Source: a virus
Taxonomy: Duplodnaviria > Heunggongvirae > Uroviricota > Caudoviricetes
DNA: 43,859 bases
IMG/VR virus record: IMGVR_UViG_2908567220_000006
Location: 1 to 43,859 of that record
Strand: one strand, 5' to 3'
Shown: in pieces, positions 1-43,859 of the stretch
Layout: every line of letters begins with the position of its first letter
Numbering within the stretch: position 1 is the first letter of the stretch
The notes under the pieces: model-generated
Database searches by the model: none
What the model saw: only the letters and a program-made list of their open reading frames with translations
Told to the model about the DNA's origin: nothing
Made by a program: the position numbers and the translations under genes

Positions 1-660
1 CTATCCTTCCTGGACTTTGGTAAGCGTCAGATTTCCGCAGAACACTGCGCCGGTGTCGATGTACATCTGGTTTGCATACACCAGTGGGTGATGTGCTGGC
101 GTATGACCGAAGATGAACAAATCGGCACCGGTTATCTCCGAGACAATACCGTCCTGCGCGTCGCTAACCCGTTCACGATTCCATATCACCATTTCTTCTG
201 GTACTGGCTTATCGAATGCGTATTCGTTGTGCGGGTAGTCTGCGTGACAGATGACGACCTTCTTATTGCCGGTAACCAGTTCGATAATCATCGGGAGGTT
301 GGTAATCTTTGGCAGAAGGTATTTGAGTTGCACATCCTGCTCAGAATCAAGTTGGTGCCACCATCCACCGCCGTTTGACATCCAATGTCCGAAACTTCCG
401 CCGTTGACCAGTGCATCCAGCATCATCTGCTCATGGTTGCCACGAACAGCTCGGAACCACGGCATAGTAATCAAATCCAGGCATTCGACGTTTTCAGCGC
501 CGCGGTCAACAAGGTCACCAACGGAAATAAGTAAATCGCGCGCCGGGTCGAATGAAACTTTGTCGAGTTCGTTCATCAGCAGCGTGTAGCACCCATGCAG
601 ATCGCCGACGACGAAGATATTGCACCAGTCAGCGCCATTGATGCGTTGATATAGGTTCAT
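1..660 (-). CDS. PPP-family serine/threonine protein phosphatase (lambda NinI/PP-lambda-like)
   Basis: Translation contains metallophosphatase signatures GDLHG, GDLVDRG and GNHE. Start taken at MNLYQRING (ATG 658-660), overlapping the upstream gene stop; the ORF-track 1..780 N-terminal extension is not used. Confidence 0.85.
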
Positions 661-14927: not shown

Positions 14928-15004
14928 TGGCGTGGCATGCAGGATTCGAACCTGCGACCAACCGCTTAGAAGGCGGTTGCTCTGTCCAGCTGAGCTAATG
15001 CCAC
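14928..15004 (-). tRNA. tRNA-Arg (anticodon UCU)
   Basis: Manual fold of the reverse complement: 7-bp acceptor stem GTGGCAT/ATGCCAC, D-arm GCTCAGCTGGACAGAGC, anticodon stem ACCGC/GCGGT with loop CTTCTAA, T-arm GCAGGTTCGAATCCTGC, discriminator G plus CCA. Acceptor stem differs from my recollection of host argU. Confidence 0.9.
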
Positions 15005-30785: not shown

Positions 30786-31637
30786 ATGAAAAAAATAAAT
30801 TTGTTTTTTGGCATAGTGCTTTCAATAGTCTCTGTAAATCCTACAGCTGCCAGTTCATTGCAATGCAATAAGGATAACTTTGATGCATGCAAAACGTGCG
30901 AACAATTATCAAAGGCTATCGACTTAAAAGAACCTAATCGTGGCGATTACTATAGAGGGGCTTTATGGAATGGGCTTTACGCCTCTTATGTAATTAATTG
31001 CCCTGTGGTTGCAGAGAAGTTACTGAGCCATGGTGCTATACCATCATATGGCGGATATATGGGGTCTATGGGGGCGGTTCTGACAGGAAAATGGCCTCAT
31101 AACAATGAATCAATAAATCTTTCATGGGCAGATTTGCTTATAAAACATGGATTTGATGTTAATAGGCATACGGGGAATTATAAATCAGCTACTGAAGTAT
31201 GGGCTATAGATAAAAAACAGATTGAATATAAGTCAGTTTTTGACAAGTTAATTCAATCCAGCGAAGTAAAACCACTCGATCCTTCAAGAAATTTAGAATG
31301 GTGTGCGTCTGAAGGGTATCGCTCAGTTGTCGTTTATTCCCTTAACTCATGTATAGAAAATGCTATAAAACGTTTGGATGACGGTGTTTCTTCAGCGTCT
31401 GATATTTCATCAGCAGCCGTAAATTCCTGTACTAGCGATGTAGAAAATTTCAATAAGCATTTGGCATGCAAAGCAGCTGTTAAAGAAAACTCTGATAAAG
31501 AGAGAAGCAACGTTTACCAGTTATTAACCAGTGATAGTCAAATGAATAAAAATGTTATTGATATGCTGAAGGAAAGAAATATTGAAACGGTTCTTGAATT
31601 TAGAGCTGAAAATCGATCAGCGAAAACTGCACAGTGA
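30786..31637 (+). CDS. secreted Cys-rich protein with ankyrin-repeat-like segments (moron)
   Basis: N-terminal signal peptide MKKINLFFGIVLSIVSVNPTAA; AT-rich codon usage unlike flanking genes; segments ALWNGLYASYVINCPVVAEKLLSHGA and WADLLIKHGFDVN resemble ankyrin repeats. Confidence 0.55.
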   Translation: MKKINLFFGIVLSIVSVNPTAASSLQCNKDNFDACKTCEQLSKAIDLKEPNRGDYYRGALWNGLYASYVINCPVVAEKLLSHGAIPSYGGYMGSMGAVLTGKWPHNNESINLSWADLLIKHGFDVNRHTGNYKSATEVWAIDKKQIEYKSVFDKLIQSSEVKPLDPSRNLEWCASEGYRSVVVYSLNSCIENAIKRLDDGVSSASDISSAAVNSCTSDVENFNKHLACKAAVKENSDKERSNVYQLLTSDSQMNKNVIDMLKERNIETVLEFRAENRSAKTAQ

Positions 31638-31643
31638 TCAAAC

Positions 31644-31668
31644 AGGCCGCTTTCGCGGCCTTGTTTTT
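31644..31668. terminator. intrinsic terminator shared by convergent genes
   Basis: GGCCGC-TTTC-GCGGCC hairpin followed by TTGTTTTT on the plus strand. Confidence 0.6.
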
Positions 31669-31828
31669 AACGAATGCCACCGCCGCCCGGACGGGAATCC
31701 GCAGAACGCCCACCGCAGCGGGAGCCGTCAGCGGCAGTATCGCTGTCGTGCTGACAACGACCGGCAAAGGCCTGAGTTGAAGCTACCAGAGACAACAAAA
31801 CGAACAGTGCAGCAAATGCTTTTTTCAT
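31667..31828 (-). CDS. small secreted Gly-rich hypothetical protein
   Basis: Start at MKKAFAALFVLLSLVASTQAFA (signal-peptide-like); weak SD. Confidence 0.35.
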   Translation of the reverse strand: MKKAFAALFVLLSLVASTQAFAGRCQHDSDTAADGSRCGGRSADSRPGGGGIR

Positions 31829-31911
31829 TGTGAAAAATTTCCATCTATAAGCCACCTCAATGTGGCGTCAATGAGTGTAGCACTGACTTTTGTTTCGTCC
31901 ATAAAAAACTA

Positions 31912-32424
31912 CTATGCAGGCTTTTTGGATTTGTACGAATAATCCCACGGATAAACATTTCTACTAAGTGGAGCTGTATTCGTTCGTTCATGAAATAATT
32001 TTGTGAAATTCAATACGGAATCCATCCAAACTTTTGCGTTAGCTTTGGTGTGTGCGGGCGGGTCCCAATAAGCTAGTAAGGCTGCATCTCTTATTTCATT
32101 GACTGCATATATGAGATATGCGTTACTGGTTGGTTTTGGCCTGTAATTTCCTTGTTCATCAATCAATCCATATGACCACTCATCCCAACACTGTTCAGTA
32201 CATGAGTATGAATATGATGCATATTCACCAATATTGACATGAACCTTTCTGAGATGGAAGCCTAATACTTCCTCTGGTCTTTCAAAAAGAGTATCTTTTC
32301 CCAGATCAGGATGATGACCATGACGCCAGTGTTGTTTAAAAGCATCTTTTAGCGAAATCAGAAAGTCATCAGTTTTAAACTCACCAGTAGGTATAACCTT
32401 CCCGCTATACTCACTCAAAAACAT
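31912..32424 (-). CDS. hypothetical protein B (170 aa), downstream gene of a two-gene accessory operon
   Basis: Start overlaps the upstream gene by 14 nt; AT-rich; motif region HWRHGHHPDLGKDTLF...GFHLRKVHVNI; no confident family assignment. Confidence 0.55.
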   Translation of the reverse strand: MFLSEYSGKVIPTGEFKTDDFLISLKDAFKQHWRHGHHPDLGKDTLFERPEEVLGFHLRKVHVNIGEYASYSYSCTEQCWDEWSYGLIDEQGNYRPKPTSNAYLIYAVNEIRDAALLAYWDPPAHTKANAKVWMDSVLNFTKLFHERTNTAPLSRNVYPWDYSYKSKKPA

Positions 32425-32737
32425 CGAATTCCTCTTCCTTCATATGCGTTTCTAATGAGTTAAGCTGGCGGAAAGATATCTCTTTTGATTCTGCAGATGA
32501 GAGTTTTTTTATCCGCTTTATATTCTTTGTGATAGGAATAGACATTGTATGCACATCAGCGGATGCTCTTGGCTTTGTGCTGATAAAAATATGGCGCAAT
32601 GCCGCATTTTCACTATTGAACGAGCCAATAGCTGATTTACGTGCTACAACCTTACCAGTAAAAATACGACTCTTGCTACGCTTTGCATGAGTTCCGCTTC
32701 TTACCGGACCTCTCATCACGAATCCAAGTTTTGTCAT
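32411..32737 (-). CDS. hypothetical protein A (108 aa), upstream gene of a two-gene accessory operon
   Basis: GGAG SD 7 nt before the ATG; basic N-terminus; candidate promoter (-35 TTGCAG, -10 TACTAT) abutting the palindrome at 32780-32794. Confidence 0.5.
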   Translation of the reverse strand: MTKLGFVMRGPVRSGTHAKRSKSRIFTGKVVARKSAIGSFNSENAALRHIFISTKPRASADVHTMSIPITKNIKRIKKLSSAESKEISFRQLNSLETHMKEEEFDVFE

Positions 32738-32779
32738 CTTTAATCTCCGGTAAGTTACAGGTATAAAATAAAAACAGGT

Positions 32780-32794
32780 TTACCTTTAAGGTAA
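32780..32794. promoter_or_regulatory. palindrome copy at promoter of two-gene accessory operon
   Basis: Perfect TTACCtttaaGGTAA 43 bp upstream of the 108-aa gene start. Confidence 0.5.
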
Positions 32795-32867
32795 TAGTAC
32801 GCTATTCACCCCCGGTCTGCAATCTGTACAGAATTATTTAAAGGCACGTCCCTGTGCCGCCGACCCG

Positions 32868-33560
32868 TCAGAAGAACCCTGCCTTGTCGTTGATGTACTC
32901 CGCGTGGGTCTGGATATCACGCAGGCATTTGCTCACACCGACGATGTAGCAGAACATGGTGGTCAGTTCCGCCGCCGCGCCCGATACATCGTGCCCGTCT
33001 TCCTGTAACTGGTTCAGCAGATTCATCAGCAGTGAGTTCTCCGTCAGGCCGAGAACACCAGACGGCGAGTGAATCAGGCTACGGTAGCCGGGCTTCAGCG
33101 GGGCGCTGTAGGTTTTGTTCTCTATCTTCATCGCCTGCATTACTGCTGACGCCGTGGCGTTGGCTACCTGGTCGGCAACCATCTTTATGCGTTCTTCCTG
33201 CGGGAGCGAGTTTTTAATGTAACTTCCGGTGCGGCGGATCTGAGGAAGAACCTCACCTGTAACCCATTCAAGAAATCTGAATGCTCTCGTTCCCTCAGTC
33301 ATTGCCTCTTTGCAACGCAGAATAAGGATGTAGAGACCTGATTCTGAAACGATGGATAGTTCTTGTATTCCACCAGGGGTCTGTATTGAATACAGCCCCT
33401 TTTTGTTCCAGCCTTTTTTATCAAGTTTTCTCGCTTGTGTAACATCAATATTCAAAGCATTGCACACATCTTTGGTGACAAACCAAGGTTCTCCGTCAAT
33501 CATGAACATACGGATCTGGCAGGATGACTCAAAGGAAAAGATGGAAGGTTTGGTATTCAT
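32868..33560 (-). CDS. antirepressor (Bro-N domain with C-terminal Ant/KilA-C-like domain)
   Basis: Start at MNTKPSIFSFESSCQIRMFMIDGEPWFVTKDVC (Bro-N signature) with AAAGGTGA SD. Confidence 0.7.
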   Translation of the reverse strand: MNTKPSIFSFESSCQIRMFMIDGEPWFVTKDVCNALNIDVTQARKLDKKGWNKKGLYSIQTPGGIQELSIVSESGLYILILRCKEAMTEGTRAFRFLEWVTGEVLPQIRRTGSYIKNSLPQEERIKMVADQVANATASAVMQAMKIENKTYSAPLKPGYRSLIHSPSGVLGLTENSLLMNLLNQLQEDGHDVSGAAAELTTMFCYIVGVSKCLRDIQTHAEYINDKAGFF

Positions 33561-33827
33561 GGCGATCACCTTTGTAGTTAGGTTAATCACCACCGCTGAG
33601 ACCAATCAGATGGTGGTGAACTGTGCAGAGTTGGTCTTACCGGCTACAAAGGAACCCGGCGCACCTTTCGGTGCCCCCACACAGCCCACCATAGAATAGG
33701 TGCGCTTTACACATAAAAAAACCGCTTATGCGGCATATGTGCCTCTGTAGTAATCCGGGAGACCAATCCCGGCACTGGATTTTGCCAGTGCCCGATTACT
33801 ATGGCACAAGAGGAGTGCGATGTAAAT

Positions 33828-33842
33828 TTACCGCAAAGGTAA
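33828..33842. promoter_or_regulatory. palindrome copy upstream of Bro-N antirepressor
   Basis: Perfect TTACCgcaaaGGTAA. Confidence 0.45.
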
Positions 33843-33873
33843 ATATAAGCACTCCATTTGGTAATTGCAAACC

Positions 33874-34131
33874 TTATCTGGTTTGTTTTCGTAATTGTTC
33901 GGCACAATAGTCGAGATGTGTTTGCAGATCCTGCATAGACATCTGTGAGCTGGTGACGTAGTTAATCAGTGCAGTCAGTTCGGCAAGTGGGCCATCGACA
34001 TTAAATCCATCCTTATCGAGATCCCGGAGTAATTTCATCAAGTGCGATCCCTCCACCAGTGACCTGACGCCTCCCGGCGTGTGAATCCTTTCGGTAAATC
34101 CGTCTTCCAGTGGATAGTGATACTGCTGCAT
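33874..34131 (-). CDS. small antirepressor-domain protein, paralog of the Ant C-terminal domain; putative SOS-inducible antirepressor
   Basis: Start at MQQYHYPL with GGAG SD; SHLMKLLRDLDKDGFNVDGPLAELTALINYV...DLQTHLDY aligns by eye with the Bro-N antirepressor C-terminus; a LexA box overlaps its promoter. Confidence 0.55.
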   Translation of the reverse strand: MQQYHYPLEDGFTERIHTPGGVRSLVEGSHLMKLLRDLDKDGFNVDGPLAELTALINYVTSSQMSMQDLQTHLDYCAEQLRKQTR

Positions 34132-34152
34132 CTTATCTTCTCCATGCAATAA

Positions 34153-34168
34153 CTGTATATTTATACAG
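34153..34168. promoter_or_regulatory. LexA (SOS) box
   Basis: CTGTATATTTATACAG: perfect CTGT-N8-ACAG with AT-only spacer, one base from CTGTATATATATACAG; 22 bp upstream of the small antirepressor-domain gene. Confidence 0.7.
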
Positions 34169-34207
34169 TATCAAATAATTTGTTTGCTATCCAGCACGTT
34201 TTGCCAA

Positions 34208-34222
34208 TCACCTGAAAGGTAA
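34208..34222. promoter_or_regulatory. near-perfect palindrome copy (TCACC-N5-GGTAA) in divergent region before tailspike
   Basis: One mismatch; lies between the LexA box and the tailspike promoter region. Confidence 0.4.
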
Positions 34223-34326
34223 TATCTATTCGTATTTACAGCCTTTCTATCCATATATGGTTTTTCAGGTAATAGAATAACCAGATATGCGGCGCAACGG
34301 GTGCTGCGACTATCTGGAGATTTAAC

Positions 34327-37002
34327 ATGACGGTCTCAACCGAAGTTGACCACAACGAATACACTGGCAATGGTGTTACGACGACATTCCCTTACAAATT
34401 TAGGATCTTCAAAAAATCAGATCTGGTAGTACAGGTTGTTGACATTAACGAGAATATAAACGTACTGGTTCTTGATACAGATTACATCGTCACCGGAGCA
34501 GGAGGGTACAGCGGCGGTAATGTAATTCTCTCGAAGGCGTTGGCTAACGGTCATCAGATATCTATATCACGAGAACTACCAGCTACTCAGGAAACGGATT
34601 TACGTAATCAGGGTAAGTTCTTCGCTGAGGTACATGAGGATGCGTTCGACAAGTTGACCATGCTTATCCAGCAGTGCTTCAGCTTTCTACGCCTGTCCCT
34701 GCGCAAGCCCTCTTTCATCGCGAACTATTACGATGCGCTCAACAACCGCATTCGTAACCTGCGTGACCCGTCACAGGCGCAGGACGCAGCCACGAAGAAT
34801 TATGTTGATGGGCAGATCGTTGACAATACCAATGCCTGGAAAGCTGGTGATGACATTCTTGATCAGAAAATTGATAGCAATTTCCGAAGAACAATTCGGG
34901 TTCCTGAAAGTGATGTTGATATGGTTCCTACTATAGCTGCAAGAAAAAACTCGCTATTTGGGTGGAACAGCTCCAGTCAACCTGTCCCGATATTTTCTAT
35001 GACGGAAACTGCTGACCTGGCTATTAAGCTAGCAAGCACTGAGATGGGATTGGGTGGCAACCTTGTTGGTATTTACGATGGACGACCGCCAGTTGTTGTT
35101 ACCAATACAGTAACAGATAAAATCAAGGATGGTGCAGCCGGCCTGCGTAAGGATTTCGGAGCTGTAGGTGACGGATACCACGACGATACCGCCGCTTTTA
35201 ATGACTGGTGGGAATGCCTCATGGACCTTCTCTATAAGCGCCGGGGTGTTGAGAGCGACGAAACTGCAGTGCCGTTTATGCTTCAGAAAGGGCCCAGACT
35301 TCATATCGAAAACGGCACATTTATTTATAACGGTCCCGGACTAAATATCACTGATACTGACGCATTTGTTTTTATCGCCGATGGTGAGAGTTCGCTCGCT
35401 ACAAAAATTTTGCTTCCGGATGGTGTTTACTTATTCGATTTTGATAAAAACCCGGTTCATGCGCACCTTGCCAATCTGACCATTCATGGTGGGCTTGGTG
35501 CAGTGCGTTATAAATCTAAACAGCGTTCAACTAACAGCATTCATCTTTTTGAAAATCTACGACTGTCTCGATATAAAGAATGCGGTATTAGTAATAATGC
35601 TATCGATATGCCGTATTTTCGTGTCAGTGGCTCAATGTTTTACGGGGACCCGACAAAACAAACCGTTGGTGTTTGCGTTTCAGGATATGCCGCCGGTGGT
35701 TTTATTCGTGATTCCGTTTTCAGTGATAACCGATACGGCATTAAGTTGGCTGTAGGGAAAAACAGCGTCGAGAGCAACGGCCCTGCAACTCCATACCTTA
35801 TTCAGTGCAATGATTTTTACCGTACTGGTAATCGCGGAGGCTCTGCATCATACGACATCTGGATTGAGCCGGGGGTAACCAGCAATAATGCCGGTCGCGG
35901 TATAAAACTGAGTCAAAACAAGTTCGGACAGGAGAACTTAAAATCTCCGGATACGCATATTTTGATTGCTGATGCCGCTGTATCCGGTAGTGGCTTAGGG
36001 CTAAATGGCGACAGGGCTCACGTTGAAACGCAGTCGGCAGGTTTTGTTTCTGGGGTGAGGTTTGACGGCAATGATGTTAACTCAAACAGCGCCGGGTATA
36101 TTGCGCCGTTTATCCGGACATTTACACCTAACGTGGGGAATTTCAGGTTTTCTGATTTGTACGACAACGATATGCCATCACGCATCATTGAGTTTGCAGG
36201 TGGTATTACTCAGTCACAAATAGGGAACCTGGGGCGTACAAATGTGTTTGACGCGTCTATGTGCCTGGCATTGCAGAAAGGTGTTGAACCTAAGCTGCTA
36301 TCCAACATGAATGACGTCTTCCGCCTGATTGATCCTCTGAATTATTACGTGGGGCACCCGCAGTCAACACTGGTTCCTGTTGGGGGCCAGCAGGATGATT
36401 TTGAATTACTTTACTCCGGTCCTACGTCTACTATCGGACTTAGTAACGCCAGCCGGTCATCGCTCAATAATTCATATGGGGGAATATTTGAAGCAGCTGA
36501 AATCACAATGAATACAGACGAAGGTCGCGCAGTTGCGTCTATAAGTGGTGGGCTGGCGGGGCGTAAACACTGGATTGATTTTGATATTCGTCGAGGCTCT
36601 TCAAATCCCGTAGGCTCTGTTGTGATGGAGGTCATGGACCCTACAGGGGTAACCATTCTGTTTCGTAGAATAATCCTGGTTGATACCATTACTCGATGGC
36701 AAAAAGTCGTTCTCCCGTACATTCCTAATGTAAACGGAGATATTATCGTCCGGTTCCGCTCAAATGTTTATGTGGCTGGATCAGCTACGAATTTTGTTAT
36801 TGGCAACCTCAATGTTTACCGAAACGAAACGCCAGTGAATACGGGGCATAATAGCGGTCTGCGTATGCAGTGGGATCTGCAACACGCAGTGAAAGGCGCA
36901 CGACATGAATGGTATGATAATGCAGGTAATCTGAGAGCTAAAAATGGTGCGCCGACGTCTGCCACCGATGGCGTAATTATCAGTGCAAACCCGGTAGTGT
37001 GA
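34327..37002 (+). CDS. tailspike protein (N-terminal particle-binding domain plus beta-helix-like enzymatic domain)
   Basis: 891 aa; N-terminus MTVSTEVDHNEYTGNGVTTTFPYKFRIF typical of podovirus tailspike/fibre adaptor domains; long Gly/Asn/Ser-rich beta-rich body. Confidence 0.75.
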   Translation: MTVSTEVDHNEYTGNGVTTTFPYKFRIFKKSDLVVQVVDINENINVLVLDTDYIVTGAGGYSGGNVILSKALANGHQISISRELPATQETDLRNQGKFFAEVHEDAFDKLTMLIQQCFSFLRLSLRKPSFIANYYDALNNRIRNLRDPSQAQDAATKNYVDGQIVDNTNAWKAGDDILDQKIDSNFRRTIRVPESDVDMVPTIAARKNSLFGWNSSSQPVPIFSMTETADLAIKLASTEMGLGGNLVGIYDGRPPVVVTNTVTDKIKDGAAGLRKDFGAVGDGYHDDTAAFNDWWECLMDLLYKRRGVESDETAVPFMLQKGPRLHIENGTFIYNGPGLNITDTDAFVFIADGESSLATKILLPDGVYLFDFDKNPVHAHLANLTIHGGLGAVRYKSKQRSTNSIHLFENLRLSRYKECGISNNAIDMPYFRVSGSMFYGDPTKQTVGVCVSGYAAGGFIRDSVFSDNRYGIKLAVGKNSVESNGPATPYLIQCNDFYRTGNRGGSASYDIWIEPGVTSNNAGRGIKLSQNKFGQENLKSPDTHILIADAAVSGSGLGLNGDRAHVETQSAGFVSGVRFDGNDVNSNSAGYIAPFIRTFTPNVGNFRFSDLYDNDMPSRIIEFAGGITQSQIGNLGRTNVFDASMCLALQKGVEPKLLSNMNDVFRLIDPLNYYVGHPQSTLVPVGGQQDDFELLYSGPTSTIGLSNASRSSLNNSYGGIFEAAEITMNTDEGRAVASISGGLAGRKHWIDFDIRRGSSNPVGSVVMEVMDPTGVTILFRRIILVDTITRWQKVVLPYIPNVNGDIIVRFRSNVYVAGSATNFVIGNLNVYRNETPVNTGHNSGLRMQWDLQHAVKGARHEWYDNAGNLRAKNGAPTSATDGVIISANPVV

Positions 37003-37009
37003 GGAAATT

Positions 37010-37264
37010 ATGGCATTAAAAATGACATTCAATTTTAACGGCGTGACCGTGGTAGATGGCGTGCTTAATGTGATTATGCCATCAATCAGCACCGACAAGA
37101 CAACGCTTAATTTCGGACTGGCTTACCGGGTCAGCGAAAGCGATCCATTGCTTAACTCGGAAACGTACAGTTGCCCGTATGACCTGACGGGAGCGGACCC
37201 TTTCACACAAGCATACAGCTTCATAAAAAATCTTGGCTCTTTTTATGGGGCGAAAGATATATAA
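37010..37264 (+). CDS. hypothetical protein downstream of tailspike
   Basis: 84 aa, AT-rich, 8 bp after the tailspike stop. Confidence 0.4.
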   Translation: MALKMTFNFNGVTVVDGVLNVIMPSISTDKTTLNFGLAYRVSESDPLLNSETYSCPYDLTGADPFTQAYSFIKNLGSFYGAKDI

Positions 37265-37382
37265 AATATTTACTGTACTAGTAATTAGATTGATATATTT
37301 TAAGTTTACCAATTATCCATAAACGGTTTATTGTGTATGATGAACTTACCCAACTAAGGAGGTTCATCATGCATAGTAAACG

Positions 37383-37796
37383 GTGGTCATCATGTCCGCA
37401 TCGCTAACCGCTGATACAATAAATCAGGGGCTTAGCTACGGTGCGCTGGCGGCAGTTATCGCCGGCGTACCTCCTGAAGTGGCGCTGGGATCGCTGGCCG
37501 GGGCGGTAATTTTTGTTACCTCTGCAGTTGAGTATCCGGTCAAGCGCCGCGTTCTCCTGGCGCTACTTAGCTTTCTCTGCGGCCTTCTCTTCTACAAACC
37601 CACAGCATCAATCCTTATCGGCGTTGCCAGCATGATCCCCACCATCACACAGGACTCGTTCGAGCGGGGTATCGTCTACTCCGCCGGCGCGTTCGTTGCG
37701 GCAATTGTCGCAGTGCGGGTCGGGATATGGCTGTATCACCGCTCTGACAATCCGCGCGATTTAATCCCGGGAGGAAAAGACGATGACAGGCCATGA
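37383..37796 (+). CDS. putative holin (multi-TM membrane protein)
   Basis: 137 aa with several hydrophobic helices; first gene of the cassette ending in endolysin and spanins. Confidence 0.5.
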   Translation: MVIMSASLTADTINQGLSYGALAAVIAGVPPEVALGSLAGAVIFVTSAVEYPVKRRVLLALLSFLCGLLFYKPTASILIGVASMIPTITQDSFERGIVYSAGAFVAAIVAVRVGIWLYHRSDNPRDLIPGGKDDDRP

Positions 37797-38088
37797 TCTG
37801 CTGCTTATCGCTAATTCCATCATCTGCGGCGGGATAGCGCTGCGGGTGATGTTCTTCCAGCGCAACGGATCGCGCCATCGCCGCTGGGGCGGGTGGATAG
37901 CCTATTTCCTCATCGTGGCGGCAGCCAGCATCCCGCTGCGCACCGCGTACTCATACCTGTACCACTTCCCTATGACCGCAGATCTTTCTGAGGTCGTTAT
38001 CAATGCTGTGATGTTCGCCGCGGTGCTGAAGACACGCGGCAACGTCGTGCAAATATTCAAGATATCGAGGTCGCAACATGGACATTAA
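37783..38088 (+). CDS. putative holin/antiholin-like membrane protein
   Basis: 101 aa with 2-3 predicted TM helices; overlaps both neighbours. Confidence 0.45.
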
Positions 38089-38707
38089 CGAGTTTCAGAA
38101 AGCTGCCGGCGTTAGCCTGGCGCTGGCCACACGCTGGCATCCGCACATTGTGGCGGCCATGAAAGAGTTTGGCATTATCAAGCCGTTGGATCAGGCGATG
38201 TTTATTGCCCAGGCCGGGCATGAAAGCACTGGATTTACCCAGCTAGTTGAGAGCTTCAACTACAGCGTCAGCGGACTGGCTAACTTCGTTCGGGCTGGGC
38301 GTCTCACTCAGGGACAGGCTAATGCACTGGGTCGCCGTGCTGGTGAACCGCCATTACCACTCGAGCGCCAGCGCGCGATCGCAAATCTGGTGTACAGCAA
38401 ACGCATGGGTAACAATGCTCCTGGCGATGGCTGGAGTTACCGAGGTCGCGGACTTATCCAGATTACCGGCTTGAATAACTATCGTGACTGCGGAAACGGT
38501 CTGAAAGTTGACCTGCTGGAGAATCCTGAACTGCTGGCACAGGACGAATACGCGGCTCGTAGCGCGGCCTGGTTCTTCTCCTGCAAAGGCTGCATGAAGT
38601 ATATCGGCGATATTGCACGTGTAACTCTGATTATCAATGGTGGCAGGAACGGCATTGATGACCGGCGCGCGCGATACATCATTGCCAGTAAGGTGCTGGC
38701 TGTATGA
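38078..38707 (+). CDS. endolysin, glycoside hydrolase family 19 (chitinase-like lysozyme)
   Basis: Motifs [12 protein letters not shown] and [13 protein letters not shown] typical of GH19 endolysins. Confidence 0.8.
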
Positions 38708-39186: not shown

Positions 39187-39360
39187 CATGGCATTTTTCA
39201 TGGTACTGATTTCCGGTGACGGTATATAAAACGGTACTAAAAAAATGAAGTTTTGGAAAAATGTTATCACTCAATTGGTTATGGCTGCCGTAAATAATTG
39301 AGTGGGAATGATTTAACGTCTGGCAACAGCCTGCACGTAAAAGCAGTAAAGTACCTCTAA

Positions 39361-39390
39361 GCCCGCGTAACTGCGGGCTTTTTTGTTTTT
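39361..39390 (+). terminator. intrinsic terminator after lysis cassette
   Basis: GCCCGC-GTAACT-GCGGGC followed by TTTTTTGTTTTT. Confidence 0.65.
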
Positions 39391-39618
39391 GTGTCTGGCA
39401 CTTTCTGGCAGCTGTTAGCAACGGGAAGCACGGTTTTTTCAATGGAATTTTTGATGGTACTCTCTGATTTCGAATTCAGGTTTGAAAAAGTACCATGTGA
39501 TAAATTTCGGTTGAGTTATGGTATTTGTTTTTTTATAACTCAATTAAAAACAGATAGTTAAACAACTTTTCTGAATTTTTTACAACATGGTATTTTTGAT
39601 AAAGGAAAACAATAAACC

Positions 39619-40809
39619 ATGTTGACTGACACCAGGCTGCGTCACCTTAAGCCGAAGGAGAAACTCTATAAAGTTAATGACCGTGATGGTCTGTATGTTG
39701 CGGTCACTCCGGCTGGAACTATTTCATTTCGTTATAACTATTCAATAAACGGAAGACAGGAGACTGTTACTTTTGGCCGCTATGGTGTTGGAGGGATCAC
39801 GCTTGCAGAAGCGCGTGAACGGCTCAATGAAGCCAAAAAAATGGTTGCCAGTGGAATATCGCCTGCGAGGGAAAAAGCCAGAGATAAAGCGCGTATTAAA
39901 GATGCGGAGACTTTTGGTGCGTGGACTGAGAAATGGTTACGCGGTTATCAAATGGCTGAATCGACGCGTGATATGCGGCGTTCGGTATATCAAAGGGAGT
40001 TGAAGTCAAAATTTGCCCAGCAGAAACTTAGTGAGATTACACATGAAGACTTACGCGCATTAACCGATAACATTGTCGAGAGAGGGGCACCAGCGACAGC
40101 TGTACACGCTAGAGAGATTGTATTGCAAGTCTATCGCTGGGCTATTGAGCGCGGTCAGAAGGTGGAGAATCCTGCTGATCTGGTACGGCCTGCAAGCATA
40201 GCGAAATTTGAGCCTCGAGACAGGGCATTGACGCCAGTTGAAATTGGTCTGATGTATCGGTACATGGAACGGGTAGGAACGACGCCATCAATCAGAGCAG
40301 CGGTTAAACTTTTGCTGTTAACGATGGTACGTAAAAGTGAGCTTACTAACGCAACCTGGAACGAGATCAATTTTAGTGAGGCATTATGGACGATACCAAA
40401 GGAAAGGATGAAACGACGTAATCCACATTTGGTTTTTCTTTCCAGACAGGCAATGGATATTATGATTGCTCTCAAAACCTTTGCCGGTAGCTCTGATTTT
40501 ATCCTTCCTTCGCGGTACGATTCCGATGCGCCAATGAGTAGCGCTACTTTAAACCGGGTTTTGACACTGACGTATCGCCTGGCTCAGAAAGAAGGGGAGT
40601 TGTTGCCTAAGTTTGGTCCCCATGACTTACGGCGTACAGCCAGCACCTTGCTACATGAGGCCGGGTACAATACTGACTGGATTGAGAAGAGCCTTGCCCA
40701 TGAACAAAAAGGGGTACGAGCTGTTTATAACAAGGCAGAATATCGTGAGCAGAGGGCTGAGATGCTACAAGATTGGGCGAATATGATTGATGAATGGACT
40801 AGTAAGTAG
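39619..40809 (+). CDS. int: tyrosine integrase (P4-type)
   Basis: 396 aa; P4-like N-terminal arm-binding region (LYKVNDRDGLYVAVTPAGTISFRYNYSINGRQ) and C-terminal catalytic region (HDLRRTAST...Y). Confidence 0.85.
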   Translation: MLTDTRLRHLKPKEKLYKVNDRDGLYVAVTPAGTISFRYNYSINGRQETVTFGRYGVGGITLAEARERLNEAKKMVASGISPAREKARDKARIKDAETFGAWTEKWLRGYQMAESTRDMRRSVYQRELKSKFAQQKLSEITHEDLRALTDNIVERGAPATAVHAREIVLQVYRWAIERGQKVENPADLVRPASIAKFEPRDRALTPVEIGLMYRYMERVGTTPSIRAAVKLLLLTMVRKSELTNATWNEINFSEALWTIPKERMKRRNPHLVFLSRQAMDIMIALKTFAGSSDFILPSRYDSDAPMSSATLNRVLTLTYRLAQKEGELLPKFGPHDLRRTASTLLHEAGYNTDWIEKSLAHEQKGVRAVYNKAEYREQRAEMLQDWANMIDEWTSK

Positions 40810-40944
40810 TTAATAATCAGTAAGTTAAGTGGTTGTGCTTCTTTTTTCTACGGTAGGAGAGCAATTTTAGCCGCTAAAATTTACTGAATCTTTACTGGTT
40901 TTATCTGGATTGCATAAAAAGGAAAAATAAAAGTGGATTTGCCC

Positions 40945-41850
40945 CTATATTTCCAGACATCTGTTATCACTTAACCCATTACAAGCCCGCTGCCGCAGAT
41001 ATTCCCGTGGCGAGCGATAACCCAGCGCACTATGCGGATGCCATTCGTTATAATGCTCGAACGCCTCTGCAAGGTTCTTTGCTGCCGTTAACCCGTCTGG
41101 TTTGGGCATGATACTGATGTAGTCACGCTTTATCGTTTTCACGAAGCTCTCTGCTATTCCGTTACTCTCCGGACTCCGCACCGCCGTGTTCTTCGGTTCA
41201 AGTCCCAACATCCGGGCGAACTGGCGTGTTTCATTAGCCCGGTAGCATGAACCATTATCCGTCAGCCACTCCACTGGAGACGACGGAAGATCGTTGCCGA
41301 AGCGGCGTTCCACCGCTCCCAGCATGACGTCCTGTACTGTTTCACTGTTGAAGCCGCCGGTAGTGACCGCCCAGTGCAGTGCCTCACGATCACAGCAGTC
41401 CAGCGCGAACGTGACACGCAGTCTCTCTCCGTTATCACAGCAGAACTCGAACCCGTCAGAGCACCATCGCTGATTGCTTTCTTTCACGGCCACTCTGCCT
41501 GTATGTGCCCGTTTCGATGGCGGTACAGCAGGTTTTCGCTCAAGCAACAGCGCATTCTGGCGCATGATCCGGTAAACACGTTTGGCATTGATCGCAGGCA
41601 TACCATCAAGTTCTGCCTGTCTGCGAAGCAGCGCCCATACCCGACGATAACCATACGTGGGCAGCTCTCCGATAACATGGTGTATACGGAGAAGCACATC
41701 CGTATCATCAGTGTGACGACTGCGGCGGCCATCCATCCAGTCATCGGTTCGTCTGAGAATGACGTGCAACTGCGCACGCGACACCCGGAGACAACGGCTG
41801 ACTAAGCTTACTCCCCATCCCCGGGCAATAAGGGCGCGTGCGCTATCCAC
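40945..41850 (-). CDS. insD: IS2 transposase OrfB (InsD)
   Basis: 301 aa, recognised as IS2 OrfB from memory; expressed by frameshift from OrfA. Confidence 0.85.
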
Positions 41851-42218
41851 TTTTTTGCCCGTCCATATTCAACGGCTTCTTTGAGGAGTTCATTTTCCAT
41901 CGTTTTCTTGCCGAGCAGGCGCTGGAGTTCTTTAATCTGCTTCATGGCGGCAGCAAGTTCAGAGGCAGGAACAACCTGTTCTCCGGCGGCGACAGCAGTA
42001 AGACTTCCTTCCTGGTATTGCTTACGCCAGAGAAATAACTGGCTGGCTGCTACACCATGTTGCCGGGCAACGAGGGAGACCGTCATCCCCGGTTCAAAGC
42101 TCTGCTGAACAATTGCGATCTTTTCCTGTGTGGTACGCCGTCTGCGTTTCTCCGGCCCTAAGACATCAATCATCTGTTCTCCAATGACTAGTCTAAAAAC
42201 TAGTATTAAGACTATCAC
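41808..42218 (-). CDS. insC: IS2 transposase OrfA (InsC)
   Basis: HTH-containing OrfA; overlaps OrfB in a different frame. Confidence 0.85.
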
Positions 42219-42295
42219 TTAAATAAGTGATATTGGTTGTCTGGAGATTCAGGGGGCCAGTCTAAAAAGTGCCTGAGTTGTCTGTAATTATACAA

Positions 42296-42898
42296 TGGAT
42301 GAATCAATACCCTAAGACCGGCTGGCTATTGCTGTGTATCTATATTGCACTCGGTGTAGTTCGTCACAGAGTAATTAATGCTGAATCTGGAAGTGTATTT
42401 CGTGGACTACTCAATCTTAGGAAGCGCCGGCTAGAGCAAATGCTGACACAGCCATATTCGAATAAAAATGCGGTCCGTCTGGCAAAGCGTGAGCTTCGTC
42501 AGCGCAGCCTTTATCGGCTCACAGGCTTGTATAATTATCGGCTGCAGGATTTGGCTGTAATAATGTGTGATCGTTATGGGTTGCGGGCTGGTTATCTCAA
42601 GCCGTGGCGTAACTGGCTCGAAGAACGGGATGGACGGATTGTGTTCAACAGGAAATGGCATTGTTTTCGCTGGCGTCTTTTTCTGGTAGGTCAGATTGTA
42701 AACACAGTTCTACTAATATTATTCATTATGTATATAGTTTCTCATTCTTCGGCCGAAATGATCGCACCGCTTATGTTACTCTTCATGCTTGTATGGTGGT
42801 TTCCTTGGCTAATGATCACCTCGGTACCTACCCCTAGGTGGACTCGCGAAATGGAAGTCTATCTTGAGAAATTTAACGCTGAACAGACCATGGTTTAA
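42296..42898 (+). CDS. hypothetical membrane protein (N-terminal TM, basic soluble domain, two C-terminal TM helices)
   Basis: Start at ATG 42296 (MDESIP) rather than the ORF-track start at 42269, which lies in the IS2 target duplication; IS2 sits 27 bp upstream. Confidence 0.5.
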   Translation, partial: WMNQYPKTGWLLLCIYIALGVVRHRVINAESGSVFRGLLNLRKRRLEQMLTQPYSNKNAVRLAKRELRQRSLYRLTGLYNYRLQDLAVIMCDRYGLRAGYLKPWRNWLEERDGRIVFNRKWHCFRWRLFLVGQIVNTVLLILFIMYIVSHSSAEMIAPLMLLFMLVWWFPWLMITSVPTPRWTREMEVYLEKFNAEQTMV

Positions 42899-42945
42899 AC
42901 TGTTCTTTGTTACCATGCATTCAGAGTGAAGGTAATGACTCCAAC

Positions 42946-43449
42946 TTATTGATAGTGTTTTATGTTCAGATAATGCCCGATGACTTTGTCATGCAGCTCC
43001 ACCGATTTTGAAAACGACAGCGACTTCCGTCCCAGCCGTGCCAGGTGCTGCCTCAGATTCAGGTTATGCCGCTCAATTCGCTGCGTATATCGCTTGCTGA
43101 TTACGTGCAGCTTTCCCTTCAGGCGGGATTCATACAGCGGCCAGCCATCCGTCATCCATATCACCACGTCAAAGGGTGACAGCAGGCTCATAAGACGCCC
43201 CAGCGTCGCCATAGTGCGTTCACCGAATACGTGCGCAACAACCGTCTTCCGGAGACTGTCATACGCGTAAAACAGCCAGCGCTGGCGCGATTTAGCCCCG
43301 ACATAGCCCCACTGTTCGTCCATTTCCGCGCAGACGATGACGTCACTGCCCGGCTGTATGCGCGAGGTTACCGACTGCGGCCTGAGTTTTTTAAGTGACG
43401 TAAAATCGTGTTGAGGCCAACGCCCATAATGCGGGCTGTTGCCCGGCAT
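42946..43449 (-). CDS. insB: IS1 transposase InsB
   Basis: 167 aa, recognised as IS1 InsB. Confidence 0.85.
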
Positions 43450-43643
43450 CCAACGCCATTCATGGCCATATCAATGATTTTCTGGTGCGTACCGGGTTGA
43501 GAAGCGGTGTAAGTGAACTGCAGTTGCCATGTTTTACGGCAGTGAGAGCAGAGATAGCGCTGATGTCCGGCGGTGCTTTTGCCGTTACGCACCACCCCGT
43601 CAGTAGCTGAACAGGAGGGACAGCTGATAGAAACAGAAGCCAC
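43368..43643 (-). CDS. insA: IS1 InsA
   Basis: 91 aa, [43 protein letters not shown] recognised as IS1 InsA. Confidence 0.85.
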
Positions 43644-43698
43644 TGGAGCACCTCAAAAACACCATCATACACTAAATCAGTAAGTTGGCAGCATCACC

Positions 43699-43859
43699 GG
43701 AAGAATGGAAATAATATTAACGGTTTTAGTTTCTTGTTTGGTATTCAGTTGATCGGTTTGATAAACATCGGCGGCATGATCGTCAGCATTTGACTGGCAT
43801 CCTGCCAGAGTGAATGACGCTAACATTGCCACAGGCAGAAGACATTTTTTAAATTTCAT
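43699..43859 (-). pseudogene. lipoprotein gene truncated at its 3' end by IS1
   Basis: Starts at the window edge with MKFKKCLLPVAMLASFTLAGCQ (signal peptide and lipobox); the reading frame runs into the IS1 terminus. Confidence 0.45.

Follow-up and report, generated by a model that had tools for sequence, protein, structure and literature searches.

The right end of the window, by which we mean the whole 43,859-nucleotide stretch of DNA analysed here, carries an integrase gene, a complete IS2 element, an intact gene for an uncharacterised protein of 209 amino acids and an IS1 element, all of them to the right of a prophage (Table 1). The IS2 copy, bordered on both sides by the five bases AAAAG and directly preceding the 209-aa gene, is the main subject of this analysis. 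Loci used for comparison are referred to by numbers with the prefix L.

Table 1. Features of the guaA-proximal part of the window, from left to right.
Feature	Position	Strand	Basis
Attachment core: the 15 bp at the 3' end of guaA (ATTGAGTGGGAATGA) and a few further bases; right-hand prophage junction	39297..39317	+	ends of homology
Tyrosine integrase of the guaA-targeting island, 396 aa	39619..40809	+	Pfam Arm-DNA-bind_3, Phage_int_M, Phage_integrase
Native Shine-Dalgarno sequence of the 209-aa gene, AAGGA	40919..40923	+	conserved spacing in homologues; anti-SD duplex
Target-site duplication AAAAG, left copy	40929..40933	.	read from sequence; single AAAAG in empty-site alleles
IS2, complete with transposase genes, 1331 bp	40934..42264	-	alignment to the W3110 copy
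IRR, 41 bp, outer end TGGATTTGCCCC, toward the 3' end of the integrase gene	40934..40974	-	terminal sequence
IS2 orfB (insD), 301 aa, DDE integrase core	40945..41850	-	ORF intact; Pfam rve (PF00665), rve_3 (PF13683), HTH_21
IS2 orfA (insC), 121 aa, HTH_Tnp_1	41808..42173	-	translation from ATG 42173; Pfam PF01527, E = 2.4e-19
Slippery motif AAAAAAG, programmed -1 frameshift between orfA and orfB	41850..41856	-	IS2 position 409
IRL, 42 bp, outer end ...GGGGGCCAGTCTA, adjoining the 209-aa gene	42223..42264	-	terminal sequence
Target-site duplication AAAAG, right copy; its G is base 1 of the GTG start	42265..42269	.	sequence
Intact gene for the uncharacterised 209-aa protein, start GTG 42269-42271	42269..42898	+	homologues, PGAP
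IS1, 768 bp, without target duplication	42931..43698	-	sequence, ORFs, alignments
IS2/flank junction k-mers of the occupied site, …AATAAAAGTGGATTTGCCCC… and …GGCCAGTCTAAAAAGTGCCTGAG…			

The guaA island and the prophage beside it

Left of position 39297 the window consists of a phiV10/epsilon15-like prophage; a 24-kb query (15000-39296) matched phage EC.W1-9 over 82% of its length at 97% identity. The stretch shared with free EC.W1-9, and with the prophage that strain 45E carries, stops at 39314-39317, and homology between the window and L001, a complete E. coli genome, begins at 39297, 15 bp before the guaA stop codon. The free phage is ordered as lysis cassette, attP and its own 416-aa integrase, which is 53% identical to the window integrase; the prophage's own integrase is absent from the window. 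The window order of lysis genes, attachment core and island integrase mimics this arrangement of the free phage.

The sequence-only reading had spoken of the same prophage without IS2 and had thereby implicitly counted the integrase and the adjacent gene as part of a prophage. This framing did not survive the comparison with other genomes. The order guaB-guaA-integrase-209-aa gene is present without any phage in L001, L002, L005, L006, L008, L009 and Pantoea (L011, L012), whereas in strain 45E yfgI-yfgH-yfgG-pdeF come immediately after a phage right end of 99.7% identity, without island or integrase. The integrase and its neighbour thus occur without the phage, and the phage, which has an integrase of its own, occurs without them. 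In L001 and Pantoea the locus continues with genes for an AlpA-type regulator, a RepA/AAA_25 helicase and TraJ/TrbJ/TrbL or NikA and is, judged by its sequence, an integrative island at the 3' end of guaA, probably a conjugative, ICE-like one. On these gene orders, the integrase and the 209-aa gene of the window are the remnant of a separate guaA island and not of the prophage, and two elements with related P4-type integrases occupy the guaA site in tandem, the phage having either integrated later beside the island or been lost from the island site in some strains. As in guaA islands and phiV10/epsilon15-like prophages at large, both elements of the window share the guaA 3' core and rely on tyrosine integrases of the P4 type; the differences are that the island here is cut to two genes by IS1 and that the integrase next to IS2 belongs to the island, not to the phage.

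All four combinations of phage and IS2 were found at this locus: both are present in the window; L004 and L007 carry a related phage and no IS2; L003 carries IS2 and no prophage; and L002, L005 and others carry neither. The IS2 event is therefore independent of the prophage.

Two further observations concern the prophage itself. A tRNA-Arg(tct) gene lies inside it on the minus strand (14928-15004), and tRNA-Arg is also annotated in related O157 typing phages. At the far left, the first ORF (1-654, minus strand, calcineurin-like phosphoesterase) gave no alignment to the 7-kb stretch 31500-38500 of EC.W1-9, and the adjoining positions 655-2010 of the window match that stretch at 98.4%; the early region of the prophage may be mosaic in sequence.

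On the right, IS1 joins island DNA, 32 bp past the 209-aa gene, to the interior of yfgH, of which a 5' fragment remains (43699-43859); yfgI and the remainder of the island are missing right of the 209-aa gene. No 9-bp target duplication was found around IS1, with CAGAGTGAA on one side and GGAAGAATG on the other. Other genomes with an identical 209-aa gene have 384 bp more of island DNA and an oppositely oriented IS1, a pattern suggestive of deletion or inversion through IS1.

IS2 and its target site

Alignment to the IS2 copy of E. coli K-12 strain W3110 established the identity of the element, in agreement with the sequence-only reading: all 1331 positions align end to end, with 3 mismatches and no gaps (99.8% identity), and the termini match those of the reference copy. 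The W3110 copy is bordered by its own 5-bp repeat, TAAAC, which fixes the boundaries of the element in the window. IS2 copies elsewhere in E. coli, in thousands of records, are 99.3-99.9% identical to it; RefSeq labels the matching copies 'IS3-like element IS2 family transposase' and the K-12 copy 'programmed frameshift'. Read on the window strand, the element starts with TGGATTTGCCCC and finishes with GGGGGCCAGTCTA, and its termini form an imperfect inverted repeat with a 32-nt arm pair of 78% complementarity. The lengths and end sequences of both repeats agree with those described for IS2, whose IRR of 41 bp ends in ...AAATCCA and whose IRL of 42 bp starts with TAGACTGG... (PMC3299598). The two reading frames and the A6G frameshift motif between them are all intact and, since the transposase genes lie on the minus strand, IRR is at the left of the element in the window and IRL at the right. 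The window copy thus shares with IS2 of E. coli K-12 (IS3 family, IS2 group) the length, the 41/42-bp imperfect repeats, the A6G motif and a 5-bp duplication, and differs from the W3110 copy in location and in the three base substitutions only.

As query for the empty site, IS2 and one AAAAG were removed in silico, which left a product of 1097 bp. This empty allele is present without interruption in 36 complete E. coli genomes, at identities of up to 99.9%, and by this comparison the AAAAG repeat is a genuine duplication and not a chance one. In L001, the best of the 36, the left flank (39297-40935) matches at 100% over 1639 bp and the right flank (42265-42930) at 99.85% over 666 bp, and the two alignments overlap exactly at AAAAG. 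The exact 209-aa product was looked up in addition and occurs in eight places, seven of them contigs with the empty site and a single AAAAG. Among these seven are L004 and L007, in which a related prophage accompanies the unoccupied site.

In the eighth contig, L003 (UASH01000006.1 of GCA_900450385.1), this IS2 is found again, at an unchanged position. The contig is 99.978% identical to the window over 4563 bp; the lone mismatch lies inside IS1, and IS2 is 100% identical. As the junctions are common to two independent assemblies, an assembly artefact was rejected. The occupied site is absent from all 5,426 complete E. coli genomes. When the right IS2/gene junction was sought as an exact sequence in a one-genome-per-species collection, there was no match. 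In the look-up of the 209-aa product, 51 collection blocks have no contig with the gene that reaches 2 kb, and copies bounded by IS2 and IS1, which short-read assemblers fail to join, may be hidden there. The 666 bp with the 209-aa gene are 100% identical to the empty-site alleles L002 and L004-L009. Given the perfect duplication, the identity of IS2 and flanks between the window and L003, and the identity of the flanks to the empty-site alleles, the insertion is, on sequence grounds, evolutionarily young, though common to at least two assemblies. An intact duplication at both ends and a recent insertion had both been proposed from the window alone, and both hold.

The 209-aa gene and its displaced translation signals

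The 209-aa gene had been read from an ATG at 42296, with IS2 27 bp upstream. No ATG lies there; the triplets in this region are at 42295, out of frame, and at 42299, in frame as codon 11. PGAP annotates the homologous coding sequence of L001 with 630 nt, that is, from the GTG at 42269. Across 19 aligned family members, with identities as low as 40%, the N-terminal decapeptide MPELSVIIQW is conserved, M1 and W10 without exception, and several members have I, V, F or L as residue 11; L015 and L016 have ATT at this codon. Opposite 42269, Pantoea and two plasmid-like contigs have an ATG codon and two others a GTG, and in every homologue examined a Shine-Dalgarno sequence (AAGGA, AGGAG or GGGAGG) lies 8-9 nt before it. 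On the evidence of these homologues, the gene starts at GTG 42269 and not at an ATG.

With this start, IS2 falls between the Shine-Dalgarno sequence and the start codon. In the empty allele the native AAGGA precedes the start by 9 nt; with IS2 present it is 1.34 kb away. By these alignments, then, the element separates the native Shine-Dalgarno sequence from its start codon and lies 0-4 bp from the start, not 27 bp upstream, positions 42270-42295 being coding sequence. The duplication regenerates the GTG, and hence the ORF is intact.

The protein itself has two strongly hydrophobic segments (about residues 135-160 and 163-187) and a shorter N-terminal one by hydropathy, and is plausibly a membrane protein with two to three predicted transmembrane helices. 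It had no match in Pfam, NCBIfam, PADLOC or PHROGs. The AlphaFold2 model, of moderate confidence (pLDDT 76.4), is all-helical except for a small hairpin, and a Foldseek search of the PDB with it returned nothing at an E-value under 2. The family is small, comprising 28 clusters, every one labelled hypothetical, from E. coli, Klebsiella, Enterobacter, Salmonella, Pantoea, Serratia and Lonsdalea. Its members are found on guaA islands and also on plasmid-like contigs beside genes for colicin M or Rep3, and a convergent gene typically lies downstream (DUF6710, or a hypothetical of 323-327 aa). Codon 64 of the window gene (TCG, 42459) encodes Ser, where most family members have Leu and a few Met or Phe, with TTG in L001; the empty-site alleles with the identical protein share this substitution, so Ser64 predates the IS2 insertion.

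Expression of the 209-aa gene beside IS2

The removal of IS2 had been expected to restore a contiguous, AT-rich promoter region ahead of the gene. The restored region is indeed contiguous and AT-rich (30.6% GC), but the word promoter could not be retained: a scan of the restored intergenic region for consensus sigma-70 promoters found none at the scan threshold. Scans of the empty and the occupied alleles likewise found no terminator-like site, either at the IS2 junction or after the integrase gene. Transcription of the 209-aa gene may come from a weak promoter in the intergenic region, from read-through of the integrase gene, or from both.

It had also been suggested that IS2 could provide a hybrid promoter. 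The orientation of the element speaks against this. IS2 has a weak promoter, P_IRL, just inside IRL, which reads inward, and OrfA, which binds IRL, represses transcription at this end; Pjunc, the strong promoter of the junction, draws its -35 from IRR (PMC3299598). IRR is also where a review on fusion promoters carried by IS elements puts the outward -35 of IS2 (PMC9330008), and our placement of this hexamer rests on these two sources. In the window it is IRL that adjoins the 209-aa gene, and the element's own inward promoter therefore points away from it; IRR faces the integrase gene, so that the classical route to a hybrid promoter is closed. The end of IS2 that abuts the gene thus lacks the documented outward -35, and no flank -10 is found at 16-18 bp from one. 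No promoter-like site with at least 9/12 matches spans the junction. In a relaxed scan, the best junction-spanning candidates reached 7-8/12, with poor -35 hexamers and a -10 inside the ORF; the same scan gave an outward 8/12 site inside IS2 (TTAAGA-17-GATATT, 42206-42234). None of these candidates was counted as evidence. Judged from these sequences, a hybrid promoter for the 209-aa gene is unlikely. The fusion promoters of ampC (Jaurin and Normark, 1983) and acrEF (Kobayashi et al., 2001), as summarised in PMC9330008 and PMC9783932, resemble the present case in having IS2 close upstream of an intact gene in AT-rich DNA; according to PMC9330008 they would use an outward -35 in IRR with a properly spaced flank -10, whereas here IRL adjoins the gene and there is no such pair. 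At the other end of the element, a hybrid promoter reading from IRR antisense into the integrase gene was considered and rejected, as the flank CTTTTATTTTTCC (minus strand) has no suitable -10, defined as one with A at position 2 and a spacing of 16-18 bp.

A published counterpart is an IS2 copy in the ynfB-speG promoter of enteroinvasive E. coli HN280, where the native transcript start is lost and mRNA is 5-fold lower; the legend of the junction figure labels the IRL end (PMC4156367). It shares with our case the 5-bp duplication and a position only a few bases away from expression signals, the gene downstream being intact. There the element lies at -4 of the transcription start, whereas here it lies in the gap between Shine-Dalgarno sequence and start codon, displacing the translation signals too. 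On these grounds, expression of the 209-aa gene is probably reduced once the insertion is accepted, and a loss of its normal expression is plausible. This outcome is likelier than expression driven by IS2, which we regard as improbable.

Translation would not necessarily be abolished by the displacement. The tip of IRL carries a run of five G (GGGGG, 42252-42256) 12 nt before the GTG, with a predicted anti-SD duplex of -9.4 kcal/mol against -5.6 kcal/mol for the native AAGGA, such that some initiation may persist. A distance of 12 nt is at the long end of workable Shine-Dalgarno spacing, and the run is predicted to be partly base-paired within an IRL hairpin. These elements are the core of an alternative in which IS2 rewires the gene, transcription from the IRL end and the G-run as a new ribosome-binding site together driving the 209-aa protein independently of the integrase region. 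The good pairing of the G-run with the anti-SD sequence and the outward 8/12 site would fit such a role, as would the raised expression of ampC and acrEF under an upstream IS2, as summarised in PMC9330008 and PMC9783932. We nevertheless find rewiring unlikely: the documented outward -35 is at the end that faces the integrase gene, no site of at least 9/12 crosses the junction, the G-run is both distant and predicted to be in a hairpin, OrfA represses transcription at the very end that would have to be active (PMC3299598), and the published insertion with IRL labelled at its junction silenced its target (PMC4156367). It is very doubtful that the IRL tip, with its G-run and the weak outward site, is a portable cassette for initiation of transcription and translation wherever IS2 inserts only a few bases ahead of a start codon, with the 209-aa gene under OrfA control; if true, this would be an activation mode of the IRL side, distinct from the known fusion promoters of the IRR side.

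An insertion without effect would require that the gene be expressed from signals downstream of IS2, for instance a promoter inside 42270-42296 and translation from the ATG at 42299. That triplet is in frame, and weak promoter-like hexamers with a -10 at 42286-42296 are indeed present in both alleles. The ten residues before M11 are, however, conserved as protein in distant relatives, residue 11 is not Met in several homologues, and it is the codon aligned with 42269 that a Shine-Dalgarno sequence precedes throughout; none precedes 42299, where the best anti-SD duplex is -2.2 kcal/mol. We thus hold an absence of effect to be highly improbable. The insertion could also be imagined as selected silencing of a membrane protein that became harmful once IS1 had removed its island partners, as the element uncouples the translation signals and leaves the ORF intact, and the convergent partner gene that is present downstream in other contexts is missing here. 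Against this, an identical gene with its native upstream region is kept, though IS1 lies shortly downstream, in many genomes (for instance L002, L005, L006 and L009), and the orphan gene is therefore tolerated; a single other IS2-bearing assembly and no independent insertions at the site were seen. Selection for silencing is accordingly the sort of explanation to which we give almost no credence.

A single IS2 insertion that splits the signals of an island gene and reduces its expression is, as an overall explanation, very probable. An intact IS2, of the copy-out-paste-in IS3 family, inserted once, in an E. coli lineage, into an AAAAG made of the last four spacer bases after the Shine-Dalgarno sequence and the G of the GTG start. 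The gene hit comes next to the integrase, as first cargo, in an ICE-like island at the guaA 3' end; the rest of this island IS1 would have deleted in this lineage, and the phiV10/epsilon15-like prophage in tandem at the same guaA site has no relation to the IS2 event. With the GTG regenerated by the duplication, the reading frame is not disturbed. The native ribosome-binding site is now 1.34 kb off, across IS2, as are an intergenic promoter, should there be one, and transcripts reading through from the integrase gene; expression would be reduced, as in the ynfB-speG case.

The insertion of IS2 ahead of a gene is a well-known, routine kind of event, and the present one most likely reflects the neutral decay of an island that had been truncated before, not an adaptation. 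It matters little beyond correct annotation, namely the GTG start at 42269, the assignment of the gene to an island and not to the prophage, and an orientation of IS2 unfavourable to a hybrid promoter. The alleles with and without IS2 form a natural pair that could be used as a ready-made expression knock-down in studies of the 209-aa family, a small and wholly uncharacterised one that is carried on enterobacterial islands and plasmids.
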